Virus record (IMG/VR): IMGVR_UViG_3300032216_000376
Coordinates: 1-33,008 of that record
DNA: 33,008 nucleotides
DNA from: a virus
Lineage: Duplodnaviria > Caudoviricetes
Direction: 5' to 3' (one strand)
Positions 7,836 through 19,736 of the stretch are shown here, piece by piece. Made by a program: the position numbers and the translations under genes. Within the stretch, counting starts at the first letter, position 1; each line of letters begins with the position of its first letter. The notes under the pieces are model-generated. The model was given only the letters and a program-made list of their open reading frames with translations. It searched no databases and was not told the origin of the DNA.

Positions 7836-10800
7836 ATGCCAATCTACGAGTACAAAGGGCAGCAATATGATGTTGCTACGGATGATGTAGCTGCGGCTAA
7901 ATCTAAAATATTAGGTTATCTAGAAAAACAATCTGCCCCCGCTGAGGAAAAGCCAGCGCCTGCGAAAGCAGCACCGATAGCCACTATGGGCGGCGACCCT
8001 ATGGGCGGCGATCTTGGTTCAGAAATTATGGGTGCGGCCACACCTAGCGAGACTAGCGGTACTGGCGAAGCTGTAAACCCTAAGGGTAAATCCGTATTTG
8101 AGCGCACTGCGCTAAAAAATATTCCCGCACCAACGGTTGACTACCAAAAGAACTTAGAGACTATGCGTCGTAGCGAGTCTCCTGAGTCAGTCATGTTTAC
8201 CCCCGGTCGCCGACTTGAAGCAATTAACGCGCAAATTGAAGGCGGGAAAAAGCAAGAAGAAGCGACCAAACAAAAACTAGCTGAGCAAGATGCCACTAAG
8301 CGATTCCTGCTAAATAGGCAGGCAGAAGCGGAAGATTACGGCGTTGGTAGAGGTGCTGCAGATGTTGGATTGTCTGCGGCAAAAGGCATAGTTGATCTAG
8401 GTCAAATGGGTATAGGCCTTGCAAATATTGCTACTGGTTGGATTCCCGGCGACAAGAATATCAATCCATTGCAAATTGGGCAGTGGGGAAAAATGCTGGA
8501 TAAGCTCGGCTATGACCCACAAAAAACAAATGAATTTCTTACTGGGTTTCAATCACCCCAGATGCAAAAGCAGTTAAACAATGTAGAGGATTCCAAAGGA
8601 TTCTTTAACAGTTTAAAAGCAATAGCAGTAAACCCATTAGCACTTACCGACACTATTGTTCGGTCGATGCCTTCCATGTTTGGTGGCGGCGCTGCTGGCG
8701 GCGCTCTATTACGTTTTTGGGAATCTAAAGCTGCAAACGAGGCGGCAAAACTTGGGCTTAAAGGTGCGGCTGCAGAAACATTTGTAGCAGATAAAGTTCG
8801 TAACGCGGCTATTTTTGCTGCCCATGCGGGTGAGGGCGCGGTTACTGCAGGTGGTATAGCTGAACAAGCACGGGAAGCCGGAGTTGATTGGGATCAATAT
8901 GTAGCTCCCGCTGTCGCCGCTGGACTTATTACTGGTGGTATTGGTTATGGCGCGGGTAAAGCTGCTGCGCGATTAGGTATAGGTGATCTTGAGGCATCTG
9001 TCGCTGCAAAAATGGCTGGCGTCAAAGGAGTAGGTGTAGGCGACCTTAATATGGGTTTGCCAAGGTATGTCTTTAGCGAAGCGCTTAAAGAAGGCGTACT
9101 AGAAGAACTACCTCAGTCCACGCAAGAACAAATATTTACTAATTTAGCTATGGGTCGTCCTTGGAGTGAAGGCGTACCCGAAGCATCTGCGCAAGGTTTA
9201 GTAACCGGTGCTGTCATGGGTGGCGGACATGCAACCTACTCCCGCGCACTTAATCGTCTTGGCCAACTTGCACAAGAAAAACAAAGAGAAGGCGCGTATC
9301 AACGCGATACAAGTTACGAAGGTTTGTCCGAACTGATTGCTAGACAAAAAGGATTCTTGACTCCGCAAGATCAGCAACAACGTCAGCAACAAACACAACA
9401 GCAGCAAGAACAAGCTCCTCCACCTGCGGTACAGGAAGAAGCACCTGCAGTACAAGAAGAAGCACCTGCCGTAACTCCAGAAGCAAGGGAAGCTACGATT
9501 GCTCAGTTAGCCACAGAGATTGCCGAGACACAAGGCGTCCCTGATGAAGACGCACGTCGTATGGCTGAGGCTAGGATTACTGCGCAAGAGCAACAACAAA
9601 AGCGCGACACCGCCAAACTTGCAACTAAACCACAAGACGACAGAATTAGAGCCAGAGCGCAGGAGTTACTGTCAGAAGGCTATGTGCAAGACGCTCAAGA
9701 AGCTATTGATACAGCAAAAACTCAAATACAAGACGAAGATGAAGCCGATGCACTTGCCGAAAGTGAAGCTAAAGGAGAAGCAAATGTTGGACAACCTAAC
9801 GCAGCCCCAAGTGGAACAAGCGCTAAAGTGGCTGGCGCAACCAATAAAGAACCCACCGCCACAGGAGTTGGAGGAGGTGAACGACCTAGAGTGGTTCCTA
9901 CTAAACCGGATGCTACTAGCGCTGATGGAAGAGAAACTCCAAAGCCCGCTACAGTAAGTTACGAAGGGCAAGATTACCTAGATACACCCCGTATTCGTTC
10001 GCTGATTAAAAAAGCCGACAACATTAACAAGGCTGTGCCGTCTGTACCTGAGGGTATGACTCGTTTGTGGCGTGGTAACCGTCCCGGTGAAGTTGGTCAA
10101 AACCCATCGTTTACTAATTCTTTAGTCGGTATCGCGCTCCCATTTAATGAGTCATATGGCGGCGATCTATCCTATGTGGATGTGCCAACTGCAGACTTAA
10201 GTAAGTACGAATCTGTTGGGGCAGTAGCAAAAGGCGCTGAGTTTAGAGTTACTCCAGAGATTGCCGCCACTGCGCAAGTAGTCCCAGCTAAAAAGCGTGG
10301 GCCAAAAGGTCCTCGGTTAGCCGCAGAAGAAAAAGAAAAGAAGGCGGTAGAGAAGAAAGCCACCGATGCTTTGATTGGCAGAGCACGTCGTGCGCTTACT
10401 AGTATTACAAAACTATTTGAGGAACTGCCTAAGCAGTTAGCCGAAGGTAAAACTAATGAGGCTGCTGCGCGTGCAAAGATAACTACTGAAGTTACAAAGC
10501 TACTTAAAAACCAACAAGAGCTACGCGATGCTGGGTTGGCCGGTTCAGCAGAAGGCAAGCGCATCAAAAAGTTTTTAGAAGCCAACGCACGCGAAGTTTC
10601 AGCCGTACAAGCCAACTTAGCCGCTCAAGAAGAAAGCTTAACCGCTCAAGAATCTGGTGAAGAGGAAACTGGTGCATCTTCAACAATCAACAAAGAACCC
10701 GCCGACGAAAGAATAAGTAAGTTCACAACTGGCGCTCAAGCTGTAACGCATGTCATCAAGACAGGCTCGCCATTCCAAGCTCGGTTGGCTAAGCGCCTTC

Positions 10801-13800
10801 GCAGTTTTGTGCAGGGTGTTAAGTTTGTTGTACTGGAAGAAGGTCAAGAAATACCTGAGCAACTCAAGACTCCTAGAAATGCTAAGGCATGGGATCGTTC
10901 GATTGCGCTCTATATTGAGAACTACAAGACAGGTGACCGCGTTATCTATGTGCGTGGCGCGTCATTTGGCAATTCTCAAGGTATCAACAACATCACTATC
11001 TTGCATGAACTCTTGCACGCTGCGACTAACCGCAAGTTGGCTATTGCATTTGAGTACATCAAAAAGGGTGTCTACCTAAACACTCCGGCAGTTAGAGCAG
11101 CGCAAGATTTAATCCGCATCATGAACAGTGCGGCTCGTACATACGAAGACCTAGCTAAGCAGAAGAAGTTGTCGATGGATATGGTTGCGCTTCGCTATGA
11201 CGGAGACATCTTCAACGACCCCCGTGAGTTTGTGTCCTATGGTTTAACCGACCCACAGATGCAAAACTTCTTGATGCAAGCGCACGGCTACGAGGCAGAC
11301 ATGCCATTCTTTACTCGGTTTGTTTCTGCACTGCGTGATCTGCTTGGTATGAAAGATACCGACATCAACGCACTGACCGACCTCATCGTTGCAACCGACA
11401 ACATTTTGAAAGCAAGGGTCCCCGGAGTTCAAATAAACGGCCAGTCCGTCAGTAGCATGTTTGGGTTTAACAAGGGTAAGGCTACGGAAACAGATAGCAC
11501 TCCCACCGTTACTGGGGAAACCATATCGGCTACGCCAAGCGCTAACGTCCAACGCCTTGCAAAGATGCTTGGCTCTAAGTTGTACGGTACGCCCCAAGAT
11601 ATTACTAAGGTGTCGGTCAAAGAGTTGTTCCAAAATTCTTTTGACGCTATTAAAGAAGCAATAGAAAACGGCCAGATTAAAAACGGCAAAGTTGCTATTA
11701 AGCTGGACAAAGATAAACGAACTGTCAACATCACTGACAACGGCCCCGGTATGCCCACCAGTGTGATGGGTAATCAGTTCTTGCAAATTGCTGGTACGGT
11801 AAAAGGTACATCTCGTGCGTCAGGTGGTCTTGGTGTTGCCAAGATGCTGTTCTTGTTTGAGAACAAAAAGTTAGAAGTTGTTTCTCTCCGCGACGGCAAA
11901 TTGTCTCGCATGGTTACAACTGGGGAAGACTTGAAAGCCGCGTTGGATGACCCATCACGCAGTCCAAAGATTACTATTTCAAATAACCCAGCCGACATTG
12001 AGAAATACAAAGATATATTTCCTGATGGGCACGGCACATCTGTAACCATTGAAATTCCTGAGTCATACACTGATTCTTCCAGCGGTGAAGAAAAGAAAAT
12101 TGACTTTCCGATTTCAGCTCACTACTACCCTGTATTAGAAAAAAGTCCTTTATTTGACGACATAGAAGTTACGTTTGATAGAGGTTCTGGCCGTCCAGAT
12201 AAATTGCAGCTTGGTAGCAACTTCCCTATCAATGACTTCACGCCTTTTGCAAATGTAAATTTTGCTTGGGGTACTGCGCGTGTCTATGTATCTAAAAAGA
12301 TAGTAAAAAATTATGGCGATAACGCCCATGTGCTGTCTAATGGTTTATGGCAATTTGATAGAAGCATTAAAGACCGACCCGGATATGACGGTAAGGCAAT
12401 TCAACGTACCTTCTATGTTGATGTATCCCCTTCCCCAGACGTTAAACCTGAGGATGCTGGCTATCCGTTTGACCTAAACCGTCAAGGCTTCTCGAAGCAA
12501 GCTAATGCCGACTTTGACAAAATCTTTAACTACATCACTGCGATCTACAGCCAACTAGATTTGGCCGCAGGTATTAAAAACTTTGGCACTGTTCAGTACG
12601 TCAACCCAAACGGTAGCTTGACTACCGCAGAAATACTTGAGCCTAAAGCACCACGTAGCGAAAACGCTTTTACTCTGATTAAACCCGGAGATAGCGTAGA
12701 AGTCCGCGATGGTGTTTTGTACGTCAACAACAGGAAGTTGCCAGAGCTTACCGCCGACGACTTAAAGAATACTGCGGTGCGCATCGACGAGTTGACTATC
12801 CCCCAAAAGGATATCAACCCACAGAAGGTCATGATTCATGACAACACTCGGTTCGAGATAGACGATAAAGTTTTAACGCAGCAAGGTTGGGATGTAGTAG
12901 TAATAGACAACTCATGGGTTGCTGTTAAAGACGGTAAAAAATACACTGAACCCGGTTCGATGGAAGAGTTAGTAGCTCAGATGGAAGCTGACGGGGCGAT
13001 AAAGTCCGAGTCTCTTTCTGAACGTGCCCGTGATAAGTTTGGTGATCGGTATGACAAGTACCTTGCTGAGATTGGTCAAACATTCCAACTACTTCGTAGT
13101 GCTCTAGTAGCCGGTGGCCGTGGTGAATACGGTGATTTAGCAAGCCAAGCAATCGGTACAAGTATTGACAACGAGTATTACGGTGTTAGTATCATGGTCC
13201 CGTTCAAGGGCATGTTTATCAATCCGACAACGACCGACATGCGCGACACTCCTGAGGAGGTTGCCATATCAATGATTGGTACGATGATCCATGAATTGGC
13301 TCACTTTAAAGCACGCAATCACGGTGCCGAGTTTGCTAGTGAGATGCAGAAGGTAATGACCTTATTGAAGGTCTACCCTGCTATTGATTTAGACCAAGTC
13401 GAGAAAAACTTAACTAAGCATATCGCTAAGAACAAAGACATTTTTGACTTTTTAAATAAGGAGTTCCGTAGTGGAAATCTCAAACCTCGTGGAAACCGCT
13501 TCAAAGACGCTGGCGGGTACCAGCAAATTGAAAATGAAGGCTCTACTGAGTCAGTGGAAGGCACTAGCGGAGCAGGAGAAGGGTGGAGACCCAGCCTATC
13601 CCAAATCGCTGGGCCTAGCGATCAGAACGCTGGACAAGTCGGCATCGGTGAAGGACTTGATAACGAAGCTCAAGAAGTCGGAGAGGCAGTAAGAAGTCAA
13701 AAGGCTATTGAGCGTGAGGCTCAGGTAGTCGGTGAAAAATTCAATGAGTCCGTAAAAGGCTACGAGTTTGGCAAAGCTGCAACGGCTTTGCAGATGGCAC

Positions 13801-16652
13801 AGGACCCTCGTAAAGTTATACCTGCTTTAGCAGCGTTATGGAAGAGAGCAAACGCGGCGCAACGTAGAGCTTTGGTAGCTGCACCTACTACGGAATTCTT
13901 AGCTGATTGGGCTGGCAACAACGTCCCGCAATTAAAGACGGTTTCTAATCTGCTTCAACGCATGAACGGCATGACGCTGCAACTGTTGAGGTCGGCTGGT
14001 GAATTAACAAACGAAATTGAGCGGGCATTCCGTGCAGACAAAACCTTGCGGGCTAAGCTCGACAAGATTGCGTTCATGTCTACTTTGATGGAGATTGATC
14101 CATCCAACCCCAACGCAAAAGAACGTAGTCTTAACTTAGACAAGATGTACGCTGAACTTGGCACAGACGGTCAACGCGTATACAAGCGCATTAAGAATCA
14201 TTTTGAAGTCCTGTCTGAGTACATGTCCCGTTTGTTGGATGATCAGATTACAAACTCTAAGTTGCCGATTGCTGAGCAAGCTAACCTGATGAAGAAGATT
14301 AGGGCGATTTACGAGACAGGGTCAAAGATTAGCCCGTACTTCCCGCTGGTGCGTGAAGGCGATTACTGGCTGTCTATCGGTTCAGGGAAAACCCGTAAGT
14401 TCTTTATGTACGAAACGGAAGCTCAGCGCGATGAAGCAATGCAACAATTTGCCGACGAGCGCGTTAAAAAGAAACCCAACGAAACTACTGAAGAGTTTGA
14501 AAAGCGTAGGGCTGAAAACTTAGAAGAACTAATCGGCGACCAAGAGTACAACTTTGGTAATGACATCAGCACTCTGCGCAGAGCCTCTGGTAATACAAGC
14601 GTATTACTTCGTGACATCTTTGTAACGATTGACGGTGCAAGTTTAGGTGACAGTGAGGCCAAAGAACGCTTGAAAGACGCTGTGTATCAAGTGTACCTAC
14701 AGTCCATGCCTGAGCAAAGTTTCCGTCGGCAGTTTATCCACCGCAAGGGAACAACTGGATTCCGTCCTGACCTCCTGCGTAACGTAGCACACACATCTAC
14801 AAAGATGGCTACTCAGCTTGCCCGTATTAAGTATGCTCCGCTGTTGCGTAATGCTATATCTGCTGCGCAGGATTCGATTGCTAACCGACCAAGTATGCAA
14901 CCGTTCGTGACTGAGATGCGGGGCCGGGTTGACTCTTCTCTTTCTCCTGTTAAAGAAGGCGTAGCAGCCAGCATAGTTGGCGGTATCACTAAAGCTTCCT
15001 ACATCTACTATTTGGGTGGCGCATCTTCTGCTTTGCTACAACCCTTAAGTATTTTCCAGACTGGTCTGCCTGTACTGTCTCGCTACGGCGCGTTCAATGC
15101 TACCCGTGAATTGGGCACTATGCTAAAGGTATGGCAGCAGTACGGCGTGTACAAAACCAACAAAGACGGAACTCAATCATGGGTCGCACCTTCCATTGAA
15201 CACGCTAAGGATTTAACTCCGTTAGAGCGCAAGGCTATACGCGAGATGCTGGCACGTGATGTGACTACTTCCACTTATGCAAGCGCAGTGTTTGACTATA
15301 AGAAGACGCCGACCGAGAACCTAAGCTCGCCTATCACAAACTTTGGTAAAGGTACCGTGGACTTGTTGGTGCTTGGTGGCTTGATGCACTCGACCGAGCG
15401 CTTGTCTCGTGAGATCATGTTCATGAGCTCGTTCCGCTTAAACATAAAAGAAGGCAAATCTTTTGAAGAGGCGGTAGATCAAGCGACCTACGATACCAAC
15501 GAAGCTCTGGGCAACTATGGCGAGTACAACCGACCCACATTCATGAAGGGTTTAGGCGGCAAGTTACTGACGCAGTTCATGATGTATCCGTTGCATGTAA
15601 CGCTATTCTTGCTCAAAAACTTTAAAGAGATGATTAAGCCGATGGACGGACGTACCCGTGTTGAGGCAGTGCAGAAGTTCTTTGGTACTTTGGGTACAAC
15701 TTACATCCTCGGCGGTTACGTTGCTCTACCAATGTTTAGCACAATCATGGGCTTGCTTGGCTGGGCATGGGAAGCATTAAAGGATAAAGATTGGCCTGAG
15801 GATTTACGGTCTATGAGCTTTGAGTTCTGGTTCCGTACTGTTTGGATGCCTAAGCAACTTGGCGAAACTGAAATTGGTGGTAAGAAGCTGTCCGACATCC
15901 TTGAGCGCGGTCCTGTTAACGCATTGACTGGGCTTGATATTTCTGGCCGTACCAGCCTCAACAACTTATGGTTGCGGGACACTAAAGAAGCCAAGACAAT
16001 CAAAGAAGAGGTCATGAACATGATGCTCGAGAAGTCTGGTGCTGGCGTGAATATGATGGTGTCTATGGCTGAAGGGCTTTCTGCTCTGGCGCATGGGGAC
16101 ACAGCCAAAGGTGTGAAAAAACTATTACCCGCTGGCTTTAGAAACTTTGTCACTGCAAATGAGTATTGGAAAGAAGGCGCTAAGGACAACAAAGGCACTC
16201 GGATTCTGTCTAAGGATGCGTTTACTACTGGTCAGATAATTGGTCAGGCTGTCGGCTTCCGTTCTGATTTACTGGCTAACACGCAATACGTAAACTTCAA
16301 GGCGATCGGCATTCAGCAACACATCCTCAATGAACGTCAGGCATTGCTAAACAATCTTGATCGTGAGTTTAGAAACAAAAACATGAAGAAGTTTGGCACC
16401 TACATGAAGGACATGAACGAGTTCAATCGCAAGTTCCCAACGTACCAAATCAGTGGTGACAACCTTTCAGATGCGCTCGAAGGTAATGCCGAGAAACGCG
16501 CAAAGGCTTTACGTGGGTTTGAACTCAACGAGAAGAACATGCCTTTACTTGGTAATGCACTTGCTCCGTCTCGTAAAGCGGCTAGGACGGCAGAAGCTAA
16601 AGGTCGCGTAGAAAATACAAGAGAAGTCTCTGGCCGACTAGAACGCCCATAA
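7836..16652 (+). CDS. Giant polyvalent internal virion protein (ART-like + zincin + GHKL ATPase + zincin + PLxRFG/LPD-type C-terminus)
   Basis: 2938-aa uninterrupted ORF. Motifs: RLWRG..SFTNS..AEF (~aa 743-803); HELLH (aa 1057) with EFVSYG (aa 1131); ELFQNSFDA / DNGPGM / GGLG / GTSV (aa 1263-1403); HELAHFKARNH (aa 1819); YFPLVREGDY (aa ~2170). Confidence 0.9.
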   Translation: MPIYEYKGQQYDVATDDVAAAKSKILGYLEKQSAPAEEKPAPAKAAPIATMGGDPMGGDLGSEIMGAATPSETSGTGEAVNPKGKSVFERTALKNIPAPTVDYQKNLETMRRSESPESVMFTPGRRLEAINAQIEGGKKQEEATKQKLAEQDATKRFLLNRQAEAEDYGVGRGAADVGLSAAKGIVDLGQMGIGLANIATGWIPGDKNINPLQIGQWGKMLDKLGYDPQKTNEFLTGFQSPQMQKQLNNVEDSKGFFNSLKAIAVNPLALTDTIVRSMPSMFGGGAAGGALLRFWESKAANEAAKLGLKGAAAETFVADKVRNAAIFAAHAGEGAVTAGGIAEQAREAGVDWDQYVAPAVAAGLITGGIGYGAGKAAARLGIGDLEASVAAKMAGVKGVGVGDLNMGLPRYVFSEALKEGVLEELPQSTQEQIFTNLAMGRPWSEGVPEASAQGLVTGAVMGGGHATYSRALNRLGQLAQEKQREGAYQRDTSYEGLSELIARQKGFLTPQDQQQRQQQTQQQQEQAPPPAVQEEAPAVQEEAPAVTPEAREATIAQLATEIAETQGVPDEDARRMAEARITAQEQQQKRDTAKLATKPQDDRIRARAQELLSEGYVQDAQEAIDTAKTQIQDEDEADALAESEAKGEANVGQPNAAPSGTSAKVAGATNKEPTATGVGGGERPRVVPTKPDATSADGRETPKPATVSYEGQDYLDTPRIRSLIKKADNINKAVPSVPEGMTRLWRGNRPGEVGQNPSFTNSLVGIALPFNESYGGDLSYVDVPTADLSKYESVGAVAKGAEFRVTPEIAATAQVVPAKKRGPKGPRLAAEEKEKKAVEKKATDALIGRARRALTSITKLFEELPKQLAEGKTNEAAARAKITTEVTKLLKNQQELRDAGLAGSAEGKRIKKFLEANAREVSAVQANLAAQEESLTAQESGEEETGASSTINKEPADERISKFTTGAQAVTHVIKTGSPFQARLAKRLRSFVQGVKFVVLEEGQEIPEQLKTPRNAKAWDRSIALYIENYKTGDRVIYVRGASFGNSQGINNITILHELLHAATNRKLAIAFEYIKKGVYLNTPAVRAAQDLIRIMNSAARTYEDLAKQKKLSMDMVALRYDGDIFNDPREFVSYGLTDPQMQNFLMQAHGYEADMPFFTRFVSALRDLLGMKDTDINALTDLIVATDNILKARVPGVQINGQSVSSMFGFNKGKATETDSTPTVTGETISATPSANVQRLAKMLGSKLYGTPQDITKVSVKELFQNSFDAIKEAIENGQIKNGKVAIKLDKDKRTVNITDNGPGMPTSVMGNQFLQIAGTVKGTSRASGGLGVAKMLFLFENKKLEVVSLRDGKLSRMVTTGEDLKAALDDPSRSPKITISNNPADIEKYKDIFPDGHGTSVTIEIPESYTDSSSGEEKKIDFPISAHYYPVLEKSPLFDDIEVTFDRGSGRPDKLQLGSNFPINDFTPFANVNFAWGTARVYVSKKIVKNYGDNAHVLSNGLWQFDRSIKDRPGYDGKAIQRTFYVDVSPSPDVKPEDAGYPFDLNRQGFSKQANADFDKIFNYITAIYSQLDLAAGIKNFGTVQYVNPNGSLTTAEILEPKAPRSENAFTLIKPGDSVEVRDGVLYVNNRKLPELTADDLKNTAVRIDELTIPQKDINPQKVMIHDNTRFEIDDKVLTQQGWDVVVIDNSWVAVKDGKKYTEPGSMEELVAQMEADGAIKSESLSERARDKFGDRYDKYLAEIGQTFQLLRSALVAGGRGEYGDLASQAIGTSIDNEYYGVSIMVPFKGMFINPTTTDMRDTPEEVAISMIGTMIHELAHFKARNHGAEFASEMQKVMTLLKVYPAIDLDQVEKNLTKHIAKNKDIFDFLNKEFRSGNLKPRGNRFKDAGGYQQIENEGSTESVEGTSGAGEGWRPSLSQIAGPSDQNAGQVGIGEGLDNEAQEVGEAVRSQKAIEREAQVVGEKFNESVKGYEFGKAATALQMAQDPRKVIPALAALWKRANAAQRRALVAAPTTEFLADWAGNNVPQLKTVSNLLQRMNGMTLQLLRSAGELTNEIERAFRADKTLRAKLDKIAFMSTLMEIDPSNPNAKERSLNLDKMYAELGTDGQRVYKRIKNHFEVLSEYMSRLLDDQITNSKLPIAEQANLMKKIRAIYETGSKISPYFPLVREGDYWLSIGSGKTRKFFMYETEAQRDEAMQQFADERVKKKPNETTEEFEKRRAENLEELIGDQEYNFGNDISTLRRASGNTSVLLRDIFVTIDGASLGDSEAKERLKDAVYQVYLQSMPEQSFRRQFIHRKGTTGFRPDLLRNVAHTSTKMATQLARIKYAPLLRNAISAAQDSIANRPSMQPFVTEMRGRVDSSLSPVKEGVAASIVGGITKASYIYYLGGASSALLQPLSIFQTGLPVLSRYGAFNATRELGTMLKVWQQYGVYKTNKDGTQSWVAPSIEHAKDLTPLERKAIREMLARDVTTSTYASAVFDYKKTPTENLSSPITNFGKGTVDLLVLGGLMHSTERLSREIMFMSSFRLNIKEGKSFEEAVDQATYDTNEALGNYGEYNRPTFMKGLGGKLLTQFMMYPLHVTLFLLKNFKEMIKPMDGRTRVEAVQKFFGTLGTTYILGGYVALPMFSTIMGLLGWAWEALKDKDWPEDLRSMSFEFWFRTVWMPKQLGETEIGGKKLSDILERGPVNALTGLDISGRTSLNNLWLRDTKEAKTIKEEVMNMMLEKSGAGVNMMVSMAEGLSALAHGDTAKGVKKLLPAGFRNFVTANEYWKEGAKDNKGTRILSKDAFTTGQIIGQAVGFRSDLLANTQYVNFKAIGIQQHILNERQALLNNLDREFRNKNMKKFGTYMKDMNEFNRKFPTYQISGDNLSDALEGNAEKRAKALRGFELNEKNMPLLGNALAPSRKAARTAEAKGRVENTREVSGRLERP
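7984..8011 (+). repeat. Short in-frame tandem repeat, period 15 (MGGDP MGGDL)
   Basis: ctatgggcggcga occurs at 7984-7996 and 7999-8011. Confidence 0.8.
9421..9473 (+). repeat. In-frame tandem repeat, 21-bp period, ~2.5 copies (PAVQEEA)
   Basis: cacctgcggtacaggaagaag / cacctgcagtacaagaagaag / cacctgccgta. Confidence 0.85.
9784..9957 (+). CDS. Candidate nested (overprinted, +1 frame) 57-aa helical protein inside the giant gene
   Basis: SD AAGGAG at 9772-9777, 6 nt before ATG 9784. Product MLDNLTQPQVEQALKWLAQPIKNPPPQELEEVNDLEWFLLNRMLLALMEEKLQSPLQ is amphipathic, while the main frame here is a disordered linker. Confidence 0.6.
   Translation: MLDNLTQPQVEQALKWLAQPIKNPPPQELEEVNDLEWFLLNRMLLALMEEKLQSPLQ
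13471..13692 (+). CDS. Candidate nested (overprinted, +1 frame) 73-aa helical protein inside the giant gene
   Basis: SD TAAGGAG at 13457-13463, 7 nt before GTG 13471. The product is basic and amphipathic, and most of the overlapped main frame is a Gly/Glu-rich linker. Confidence 0.5.
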   Translation: MEISNLVETASKTLAGTSKLKMKALLSQWKALAEQEKGGDPAYPKSLGLAIRTLDKSASVKDLITKLKKSERQ

Positions 16653-16921: not shown

Positions 16922-19736
16922 CTGCGGTCAATGTATCAAGTTGTAGATATTCAGACTTACCTGCGTCAAACTTTAATGTCCGTACGACTGGTGACGACAA
17001 CTTCATACCCTTAGACATACGCTTGTTGACGGTTTCCAATAGGATTTGCTGGTCAGTCATGGTTTTAAGCAGGCTCTTGTAGTTGATCTGCTGTTTAACG
17101 CAGAACTCTTTGAACTGCTTTGCAGCTACATATAGATGTTTGGTATCTGGCTCGTAGCGTATTAGTAACTCTCCACGCGGTTCCATACCCGGCATCGCCT
17201 GCATGTTTGTCCGTGCGTCAACTTCACCGTTAACCACCAATGTGTTCATTGCTAAGTGAGCGTTCACAAACTCGCCAAGGGCTGTAACTGGAGAATCTGT
17301 CGGTGGCTTAACGTCAAGGCGCATCTCAGACAACATGCTTTTCATCCACTTATAGATTTCTTTCATGTCATAGTTATGCAGACCAAGTTCTTTGGCTATC
17401 AAACCGCCAGTAATGATGGTGGCGCATACGGCTGACCAAAAGCGTTCGCGTGATGTGAACTGGACTTCTTTGTCAATCTTGGCTTGAATCTGTTTATATG
17501 TATTCTTGGCTTCTTCAAGGTTGTTAACTAACCAAGTAATGTAGATTTCCCCTGCGTGGCCGTAGTTCTCGTTGAGTTGGTGGTCAAACATCTCCTTGCC
17601 GTAAGCCATACCAATCACGTCGTTAGGCTCAATCTTGTACTCTAATAGGCGCACTGACTCACCATCCGGAGCGCTCTTTAACATCAATAGCTTTTCATGG
17701 AAGCTGGCGTTAGCCGATGCCAGAGTCATGTTCTGCCAAGAAGTATTGTTAACGCGCAGTGCATTCTCTGAACCTTTAACTCGGTGTTTGCCTCGACCTT
17801 GACTGATGCCGTATGCCAAGTCGGAAAACTCCTTGGGTAGCATGTTGGTAATCTCGTCAATCGTATTGGGTAGGTTGTTCATCACACCCAGTTGTTGCAT
17901 CTTGGCGTTGAGCGTATCTTTCTCAATCGCCATCATTTCGTACGGCATTCCGTACACGCTGTTGCACATGCGCAGAATCGTAGATTTTCCTGATCCAGCC
18001 TGCTCGTAGATCACGTTAATGATTGCACCCTTTAAGCCAGTGAACTTGAACAATGGGGCACCGAATGCCGTAAGAGCGGCAAACGCATGGGGCTCCATGC
18101 CCGGTTTTGCATACAGATTAAATACTTCTTTCCACTTCTCCATGTCGCCTTTGGTGTGAATCTTTTCTGCGAAGAAGTCTGTTGTTGATGACGGCGGGCT
18201 ATAGAACGTCCCGTCTTTGGTGATCTCTTTGTCACCCATAATAAATTTGCTGTCTCCATCTACCCATCCGAATTGTGTTCTCATTAGCTCTGCTTTCTTT
18301 GTGTACTGTAAGTTTTTGACTGATGTAACGACATACGTGGCAAGGTTTTCATACTGCTTGTGGTGTGCCATCACTCCCTGTTGTGCAAGATGCTTGCGCA
18401 GCTCGTCTTTAGAAGATATAGCTGCTGTCGTAATAGCAAACTCTTTCATACCGTCGTGCGGTAGGTGATGCCTAAACAGCGCCATCTCTCCTAACTCTTT
18501 GTCCCGCATCCGCTTAATCACATACAGATCATGTTCATAGACTAGCTTTGGCTCGCCCTCTTCATCATCTTGTTGTGGTCTGACGTAAATGCCACCTTTT
18601 TTCCCACGAAAAAATGGGAATGGGTACTCAGGTATTTGGTGCTTGACTACACCTTGTTTGGTTTCAACTTCAACTTCGTTATCTTCTTCGGTGGCTTGCT
18701 CAATCTCCACACCCAAAACAATAGGTGACTTGAACTTACCTCGGTGTGGGCAACCCTCACAACCTCCGGGATTTCGCTCCTCAAATGTGTCGCAGTGGTG
18801 TGGCCCACCGTTCTTTCTTATATTCTTTAGTTTCTGGTTAACCTCTGCGGGGTCATACTCGGGATGCTTCTCTGACATTTTGTGGGCGGCTTTGTCTCCA
18901 TCTACGCAAAAAGCGGGAATAGATAACGCAGACATCCACAGTGGTTCGCTAAGTTCTTCTTGATTCTCATAGCAGTAATTGAGTTGGGCGCAACCCTTCT
19001 CGCCTAGCATCATGATCGTCTTGAACTTCTTAACCTTATTACCCAATAATGCTTCCATCATTGGGCTCATCGCTCTCGGCACAAAGTCAGGCTGTTCTTG
19101 CTCAGGCGCATCTGCACCGAGTAATTCTTTGTAGGCTTCGTACGATAGAGGCTTTGTGTGCTCGTTCCAAACTGTGACGGGTTTAGGGTCATCTTTGTTC
19201 TTGAAATTAGCCGAGTGCATTGGGCGCAAGATACGTGAGGCTTCGAAGACGTGTGGGTCAACGATTAGTCCATGCTCTTTACACAATGCTTTTAGTCGCT
19301 TAGCTAACGGCGTCCACTCTTGACGAGTAACCGTGCGGTCGAGCAACCAGTAGGCGTGAATTCCGTTGCCAGAGTTCACCAGTATGGGTCTATGCAGTCC
19401 AGCGGTTTTGCAAAACTTTTGTAATTCTGCTAGTCCAGTCTGTTGATCTAGATAGCCCTCAATAATCCCTTTGGAGTTAGGTACGCCCTTGGTAGGGCCG
19501 CAATCAATATCCATCCACAATGCGCGGAAGTATTGAGCGTTACCGTGAGTCCTGTCGTTCGCTGGTCCAAATTTAGCGCATCCAAAGAACGCGTCAATCT
19601 TCTTACCTACAAACTCTTGAATTATTTCTTCAGCTTCTTCTCTAGTATCTACAAATCTTTGATCTGGAAACGTGCCACCCCCGAATACACAGTACCGTCC
19701 CTCCGTTGGGAGCACTGCATTGAGTAGGTCAAACAT
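16890..19736 (-). CDS. Primase-helicase: N-terminal AEP (RepB'-like) primase, Cys-rich domain, DUF927 + AAA+ helicase
   Basis: WMDIDC (DxD), VNSGNGIHAYW and SRILRP primase motifs; RTQFGW (DUF927); Walker A AGSGKST; Walker B TIDEIT; NENYGHAG. Confidence 0.85.
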   Translation of the reverse strand: MFDLLNAVLPTEGRYCVFGGGTFPDQRFVDTREEAEEIIQEFVGKKIDAFFGCAKFGPANDRTHGNAQYFRALWMDIDCGPTKGVPNSKGIIEGYLDQQTGLAELQKFCKTAGLHRPILVNSGNGIHAYWLLDRTVTRQEWTPLAKRLKALCKEHGLIVDPHVFEASRILRPMHSANFKNKDDPKPVTVWNEHTKPLSYEAYKELLGADAPEQEQPDFVPRAMSPMMEALLGNKVKKFKTIMMLGEKGCAQLNYCYENQEELSEPLWMSALSIPAFCVDGDKAAHKMSEKHPEYDPAEVNQKLKNIRKNGGPHHCDTFEERNPGGCEGCPHRGKFKSPIVLGVEIEQATEEDNEVEVETKQGVVKHQIPEYPFPFFRGKKGGIYVRPQQDDEEGEPKLVYEHDLYVIKRMRDKELGEMALFRHHLPHDGMKEFAITTAAISSKDELRKHLAQQGVMAHHKQYENLATYVVTSVKNLQYTKKAELMRTQFGWVDGDSKFIMGDKEITKDGTFYSPPSSTTDFFAEKIHTKGDMEKWKEVFNLYAKPGMEPHAFAALTAFGAPLFKFTGLKGAIINVIYEQAGSGKSTILRMCNSVYGMPYEMMAIEKDTLNAKMQQLGVMNNLPNTIDEITNMLPKEFSDLAYGISQGRGKHRVKGSENALRVNNTSWQNMTLASANASFHEKLLMLKSAPDGESVRLLEYKIEPNDVIGMAYGKEMFDHQLNENYGHAGEIYITWLVNNLEEAKNTYKQIQAKIDKEVQFTSRERFWSAVCATIITGGLIAKELGLHNYDMKEIYKWMKSMLSEMRLDVKPPTDSPVTALGEFVNAHLAMNTLVVNGEVDARTNMQAMPGMEPRGELLIRYEPDTKHLYVAAKQFKEFCVKQQINYKSLLKTMTDQQILLETVNKRMSKGMKLSSPVVRTLKFDAGKSEYLQLDTLTADANRDSVVSD

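Follow-up and report, generated by a model that had tools for sequence, protein, structure and literature searches.

Genes embedded in other genes are as such already known in phages, as in the case of Rz1, which lies within Rz and is described for the Bcep22-like phage JC1 in the accessible part of PMC9144972. Rz1 is a small gene contained wholly in a larger one, has a product of its own and partners the product of Rz. Small proteins have also been associated with giant packaged ones. In the accessible sections of PMC9024508, PMC12810830 and PMC11437467, Ulx of phage P1, a protein of 17 kDa, is encoded by a separate gene adjacent to that of the giant packaged protein DarB and is assigned a helper role, being listed as an aid to DarB localization in Table 1 of PMC9024508. 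For the metallopeptidase (MPTase) domains of large polyvalent proteins, self-processing or an aid to encapsidation is proposed in the available portions of Iyer et al. 2017 (PMC5512222); no description of nested genes was found in these portions, where the words 'overlap' and 'frameshift' do not occur and where 'nested' refers, in the passage shown, to a hairpin. A 2811-aa LPD38 protein of phage phi24B is, according to the available part of a preprint (bioRxiv 10.64898/2026.04.10.717836), virion-associated and a proposed ejection protein. Full-text literature searches, with subscription papers mostly outside their coverage, returned no paper that treats the family reported below or the nesting of genes within those for polyvalent proteins.

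The locus studied here belongs to a window (the whole 33,008-nt stretch of DNA analysed, a virus record about 52% complete) in which a larger host gene (7836..16652, + strand) contains, in its +1 frame, a small gene termed A (9784..9957, + strand). The host gene codes for a polyvalent, DarB-like protein of 2938 aa that is likely an ejection or internal virion protein. Like Rz1, A is contained wholly in the larger gene, but it lacks Cys, has no spanin match, is neither a lipoprotein nor a lysis protein, and sits in the linker of a PLxRFG polyvalent protein of about 2900 aa. Unlike Ulx, it is not a separate neighbour of the gene for the giant protein, and no sequence link between the two emerges from Pfam and PHROG searches of A; the host protein in turn differs from DarB, as its Pfam matches include neither a DarB-type methyltransferase nor an SF2 helicase, both of which are present in phage LASTA. 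With the proteins of Iyer et al. the host protein and its relatives share domains, namely an MPTase, a weak LPD39 match and PLxRFG in the window and LPD38 in relatives. Protein A itself apparently represents an undescribed small-protein family.

The giant host gene

In the window the structural genes are located on the + strand, while PolA, an SNF2 helicase and a primase-helicase module are encoded on the - strand, and the gene preceding the host gene matches a 'DNA ejection protein' PHROG. The host protein matches NCBIfam PLxRFG (NF032893) with 335 bits against a cut-off of 100, as well as phrog_10089, phrog_30335 and, weakly, LPD39. It begins with a Gly/Ala-rich N-terminal domain (aa ~166-480; 8331..9275) located 5' of gene A, followed by a variable insert (aa ~731-815; 10026..10280), a first HExxH zincin-like MPTase domain (aa 953-1200; 10692..11435; HExxH at aa 1057), a module of HATPase_c and a second HExxH peptidase (aa ~1236-1855; 11541..13400) and a C-terminal PLxRFG domain, all on the + strand. 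The label 'ART-like', which a sequence-only reading of the window had given to the insert, found no confirmation, as the insert has no Pfam match and the sole lead is one from the Atlas to DUF4765 at 0.90. In the first MPTase the H, E and H of the motif and a downstream E are invariant in 32 sequences. Homologues of this domain (window 10692-11450) are LUZ19 gp37, an internal virion protein, and the central part of gp37 internal virion proteins of the phiKMV-like type (111 records); a preprint on phiKMV-like ejection proteins contains no mention of 'zinc', 'peptidase' or 'metallo'. By its sequence the host protein is a large polyvalent phage protein, composed of an LPD39/PLxRFG anchor and variable enzyme domains, and it is likely packaged and injected.

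Layout and conservation of nested gene A

Gene A opens with an AAGGAG Shine-Dalgarno (SD) motif (9772..9777, + strand), an AAGCAA spacer of 6 nt and the ATG at 9784, and ends with TAA at 9955-9957. The 57-aa +1-frame ORF proposed in the sequence-only reading was recovered with exactly the same signals and peptide. It overlies codons 650-707 of ORF 7836-16652, in the first flexible linker encoded there, and is present in a single copy within the window. The host frame across A, which had been described as disordered, is indeed linker-like, with FILMVWYC residues making up 10% compared to 28% in the whole host protein. The SD is unpaired in the centroid RNA fold, and no sigma-70-like promoter was found between 9300 and 10300.

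To assess chance, the host gene was shuffled synonymously 1000 times. In 189 shuffles no stop fell within the 57 codons, which makes the open frame weak evidence when taken by itself. An ORF of 50 aa or more that is SD-led and begins at the ATG of gene A arises in four shuffles, and two or more SD-led ORFs of this size, the host gene having two, in one.

The decisive evidence is conservation as seen across homologous sequences. A search with the peptide gave 10 called proteins and 11 viral loci, and an alignment search matched 300 stretches, of which 278 were confirmed and 80 kept. Together with the window, the 91 loci, which are partly redundant, make up 92 entries, and every one of these has the ORF in the +1 frame of a host frame that is itself open. 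Complete 57-mers are found in 78 of these entries and collapse at 90% nucleotide identity to 39 representatives, whose identity over the same bases is 0.617 in the nested frame and 0.354 in the host frame, the former exceeding the latter in 741 of 741 pairs; the expectation that the +1 frame would be better conserved than frame 0 was thereby borne out. The host codons flanking gene A show identities of only 0.14 and 0.09. Among the representatives pN/pS is 0.41 for the nested and 1.95 for the host frame (0.029/0.237 against 0.092/0.021 in 43 close pairs), and the most conserved base is the second codon position of the nested frame, which is the wobble position of the host. An SD-like motif precedes the gene in 39/39 representatives (GGAG in 32) at a spacing of 6-7 nt, and the start codon is ATG in 34 and GTG in five, a choice that fits initiation. 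The stop is also conserved. These comparisons show purifying selection on the nested frame and argue for initiation at 9784 in the window, and on this sequence evidence gene A is a real and independent nested gene, wholly inside an intact larger ORF. The 'conserved disordered linkers' of such proteins can consequently be shadows of a second gene.

The nesting also holds in broader scans. A pattern omitting a common Phe retrieved 104 distinct sequences, all nested with the exception of one chance match, and with a pattern blind to the C-terminus the HMM confirmed 111 unique copies from metagenomes and 107 from viruses (two sets that may overlap), of which 108 and 106, respectively, are nested (214/218 together). 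No standalone copy was seen among the 218 copies of these two scans. Four candidates were flagged as apparently non-nested (L381, L417, L439 and L523). In L381 (1477-1650, - strand) a TAA interrupts the host frame inside an intact gene A, representing either an error or a natural split, while L417 is a rearranged fragment. The called proteins P0127 and P0128 appear chimeric. Contrary to the view that gene callers would miss it, A is called at times, and 211 called proteins were found. In P0126 (621 aa), one of six longer matches, the host protein's N-terminal domain runs on in frame into a homologue of A; this protein may be a natural variant or the result of an indel. By a motif-based estimate, about 600 IMG/VR and 650 metagenome stretches match one gene A motif. 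Among cellular genomes it occurs in 1/401 of one bacterial family, on a contig of a Polaromonas MAG (L092) that may be a binned phage contig; this single match is too weak to name the bacterial host of the phage. INPHARED phages searched with three gene A variants gave no match, nor did seven cultured relatives searched with the HMM.

The AlphaFold2 model of A (pLDDT 90.8) consists of two helices, residues 7-18 and 34-53, joined by a Pro linker, in an acidic protein with a net charge of -5. This agrees with the helix-Pro linker-helix pattern that had been suggested, although the amphipathic character attributed to it applies clearly to helix 1 (moment 0.40) and only weakly to helix 2 (0.13), which is broadly hydrophobic. 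In a broad alignment L29, E36, W37, L40, L44, L47 and E50 are conserved to 99-100%, in part through the construction of the search pattern. Among the 217 complete copies recovered with the pattern blind to the C-terminus, the final residue is His or Gln in 216 and the penultimate one Leu, Val, Ile or Met in 216; position -3 is Pro in 138 and Leu in six. About half of the copies terminate in Gln, including that of the window, which ends Pro-Leu-Gln, and the rest mostly in His; variants with a tail longer by four residues retain a Leu-His end. No family match was obtained in Pfam, PHROGs or NCBIfam, no consistent Pfam or PHROG match across 53 family members, no match among ESM Atlas and PDB sequences, and nothing at E<=0.001 in Foldseek searches of PDB and BFVD. 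The A family is unannotated and strongly conserved, and the constraint on it exceeds that on the surrounding gene of 2000-2900 aa.

Occurrence and possible roles of protein A

Gene A was located in 121 host genes, 86 of them complete and encoding 1639-2938 aa; its position, between host codons 289 and 859, is always 3' of the N-terminal domain. The N-termini of 112 hosts form loose clusters, one of them comprising 94 hosts and another, of eight, including the window. Of the 86 complete hosts, 49 have a C-terminal domain of the same PLxRFG type as the window, and 7/7 others tested have LPD38, A being present in both LPD39 and LPD38 hosts. An HExxH motif, of several subfamilies, occurs in 85/86. 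An independent set was retrieved with a C-terminal motif (80 loci, 50 of them complete at the 5' end). Of these 50 hosts, 30 have both A and the first MPTase and 15 have neither, while four carry the MPTase only and one A only, a concordance of 45/50. No A match was found in the methylase-bearing hosts of this set, all eight of which were cut at the 5' end.

The role considered most likely, though tentatively and by analogy, is that of a small helical chaperone or inhibitor: A would associate with the giant protein inside the infected cell and stay with it up to packaging. Internal initiation on the late mRNA shared with the giant protein would give rise to A, so that the amounts of the two proteins would be coupled. 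Binding might involve the face of helix 2 that carries Leu and Trp, and might keep the membrane-seeking and peptidase parts inactive or in solution ahead of packaging. The strict nesting, with no standalone copy seen, and the precedent of Ulx point in this direction, as do the constant position after the N-terminal domain, the co-occurrence with the first MPTase in independently found hosts and the module-linked nesting of other ORFs, a different nested +1 ORF being located behind the HATPase-peptidase module in all 13 hosts with that module. An analogy can be drawn to toxin-immunity gene pairs. A prediction of a complex between A and the first MPTase domain scored 0.00 and has no bearing either way.

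Against a chaperone or inhibitor stands the finding that A barely tracks any host domain. Among 35 hosts the Spearman correlations of A distances are 0.055 with the MPTase, 0.093 with the C-terminal domain and 0.066 with the N-terminal domain, compared to 0.587 between the MPTase and the C-terminal domain. In larger sets the values are 0.15-0.22 for host domains and -0.09 to 0.16 for neighbouring genes, and co-divergence of A with its host module is accordingly not apparent at the sequence level (rho 0.06-0.22). Protein A is also more conserved (50% identity) than the host domains (23-31%), in a set partly selected on A, and it is shared by LPD39 and LPD38 hosts. Besides the four MPTase hosts without A, peptidase homologues lacking it include LUZ19 gp37 and Limnohabitans phage YIMV22061, and L109 carries A without HExxH. 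The co-occurrence of A and MPTase may reflect one phage clade only. By the weak distance correlations and the peptidase homologues without A, A marks a phage clade.

The main rival, a possible but somewhat unlikely one, is that A is a late effector directed at the bacterial host, its free [LVIM][HQ] C-terminus engaging a conserved bacterial protein (Lon or another AAA+ protease) as a decoy or modulator, with the nesting supplying late expression. High conservation without tracking of phage genes fits an outside partner, and both terminal positions are near-invariant, the Leu-His end being kept in the longer-tail variants. Lon recognises C-terminal x-L/I-L/I/V-H degrons, according to the accessible part of PMC11986505, and is regulated by LarA through such a tail (PMC10665427); A resembles these in having a helix followed by a short free tail, hydrophobic plus His in about half of the copies. 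The likeness fails for the other half, which ends in Gln, a poor Lon terminus in Table S1 of PMC11986505 (half-life 402 compared to 152 min), and for the mostly Pro position -3. Smg orthologues in the family of the Polaromonas MAG, moreover, end in His in all 29 loci parsed (of 31) and never in Gln. The window's copy of A does not have the x-L/I-L/I/V-H end of such degrons, and the Lon version of this reading is weakened by the Gln termini and the Smg orthologues.

It is unlikely, as a further reading, that A is, like Ulx of P1, a small packaged component of the virion or ejectosome, which would dock on a conserved protein of the capsid, portal or core. Ulx is packaged together with DarB (accessible parts of PMC12810830 and PMC9024508), and gene A resides inside a cluster of internal-protein genes, an upstream ejection-protein homologue being common to 101/121 hosts. 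Yet A does not co-diverge with neighbouring structural genes, and no homologue was found in the PHROG families, cultured phages and predicted viral structures searched.

That A is instead the C-terminal tail of a shortened isoform, produced by +1 frameshifting from the host frame, is very improbable. The fusion in P0126 and a +1 frame that in the window is open for another 91 codons upstream (TTG 9520, 145 aa) would fit such an origin, but P0126 may be an indel and the extension is without conservation, its open length ranging from 0 to 101 codons with a stop directly before the ATG in 3/39, and the ATG/GTG choice and 6-7 nt SD spacing are features of initiation. The tie to the ART-like domain implied in the sequence-only reading is not supported. 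A role of A as the immunity protein of that domain has adjacency in the window in its favour and is effectively refuted by distribution, since the segment occurs in 1/121 A-bearing hosts (the window's own, near-identical copies having been collapsed beforehand) and other, unrelated sequence or domains follow A in relatives. A by-product of linker composition, for which the open shuffles would speak, is refuted by selection on the nested and not the host frame, and by SD, start and stop being kept across divergent hosts.

Other nested frames in polyvalent protein genes

A second nested +1 ORF, termed B (13471..13692, + strand; 73 aa), starts with GTG after AAGGAG just behind the HATPase-peptidase module of the window. 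Six pairwise comparisons show it to be better conserved than the host frame four times and about equally conserved twice. Clustering of 237 SD-led alternative-frame ORFs of the hosts recovered A in 112 hosts together with smaller families, among them the B family in seven. Nested +1 ORFs just after the HATPase-peptidase module, found in every host with the module, compare to 3/83 after the first peptidase, which indicates that nested genes here can travel with a cognate module.

It is doubtful, though conceivable, that giant injected polyvalent proteins are equipped with control subunits of their own, encoded in the +1 frame of their linkers. Each variable toxic module would then have a nested cognate inhibitor, such as family B and its analogues behind the HATPase-peptidase module, and A would serve the ejection core as a nested chaperone, nearly universal among a large clade of uncultured podoviruses. 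If true, toxin-immunity logic would be compressed within one gene and overlooked by annotation. Gene A and the module-linked ORFs are in any case testable candidates for how phages make and package giant, enzyme-laden ejection proteins harmlessly to the producing cell.

Unannotated SD-led +1 ORFs of 108-132 aa are also present in DarB-like genes of the cultured phages LASTA, Mwe-JY07 and Skulduggery (L214:7303-7626, L216:6634-7029 and L215:9256-9642). The LASTA ORF is weakly TnpV-like (E 0.003, below the cut-off). Like A, the TnpV-like ORFs of LASTA and Mwe-JY07 are SD-led and lie in the linker of a PLxRFG giant gene, but they are unrelated to it in sequence and precede a methylase-helicase module in genes without A. 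An identity of A itself with TnpV (PF14198) was rejected, there being no Pfam or PHROG match for A and none consistent in the 53 members.

Alternative-frame ORFs of more than 100 aa, without family matches, are found inside larger genes at 1486-1938, 10750-11079 and 18589-18963 of the window. In five PLxRFG hosts without A (L223, L228, L244, L261 and L292), a recurring nested +1 family of Met/Gln-rich products of 58-80 aa is located at host codons ~523-632.
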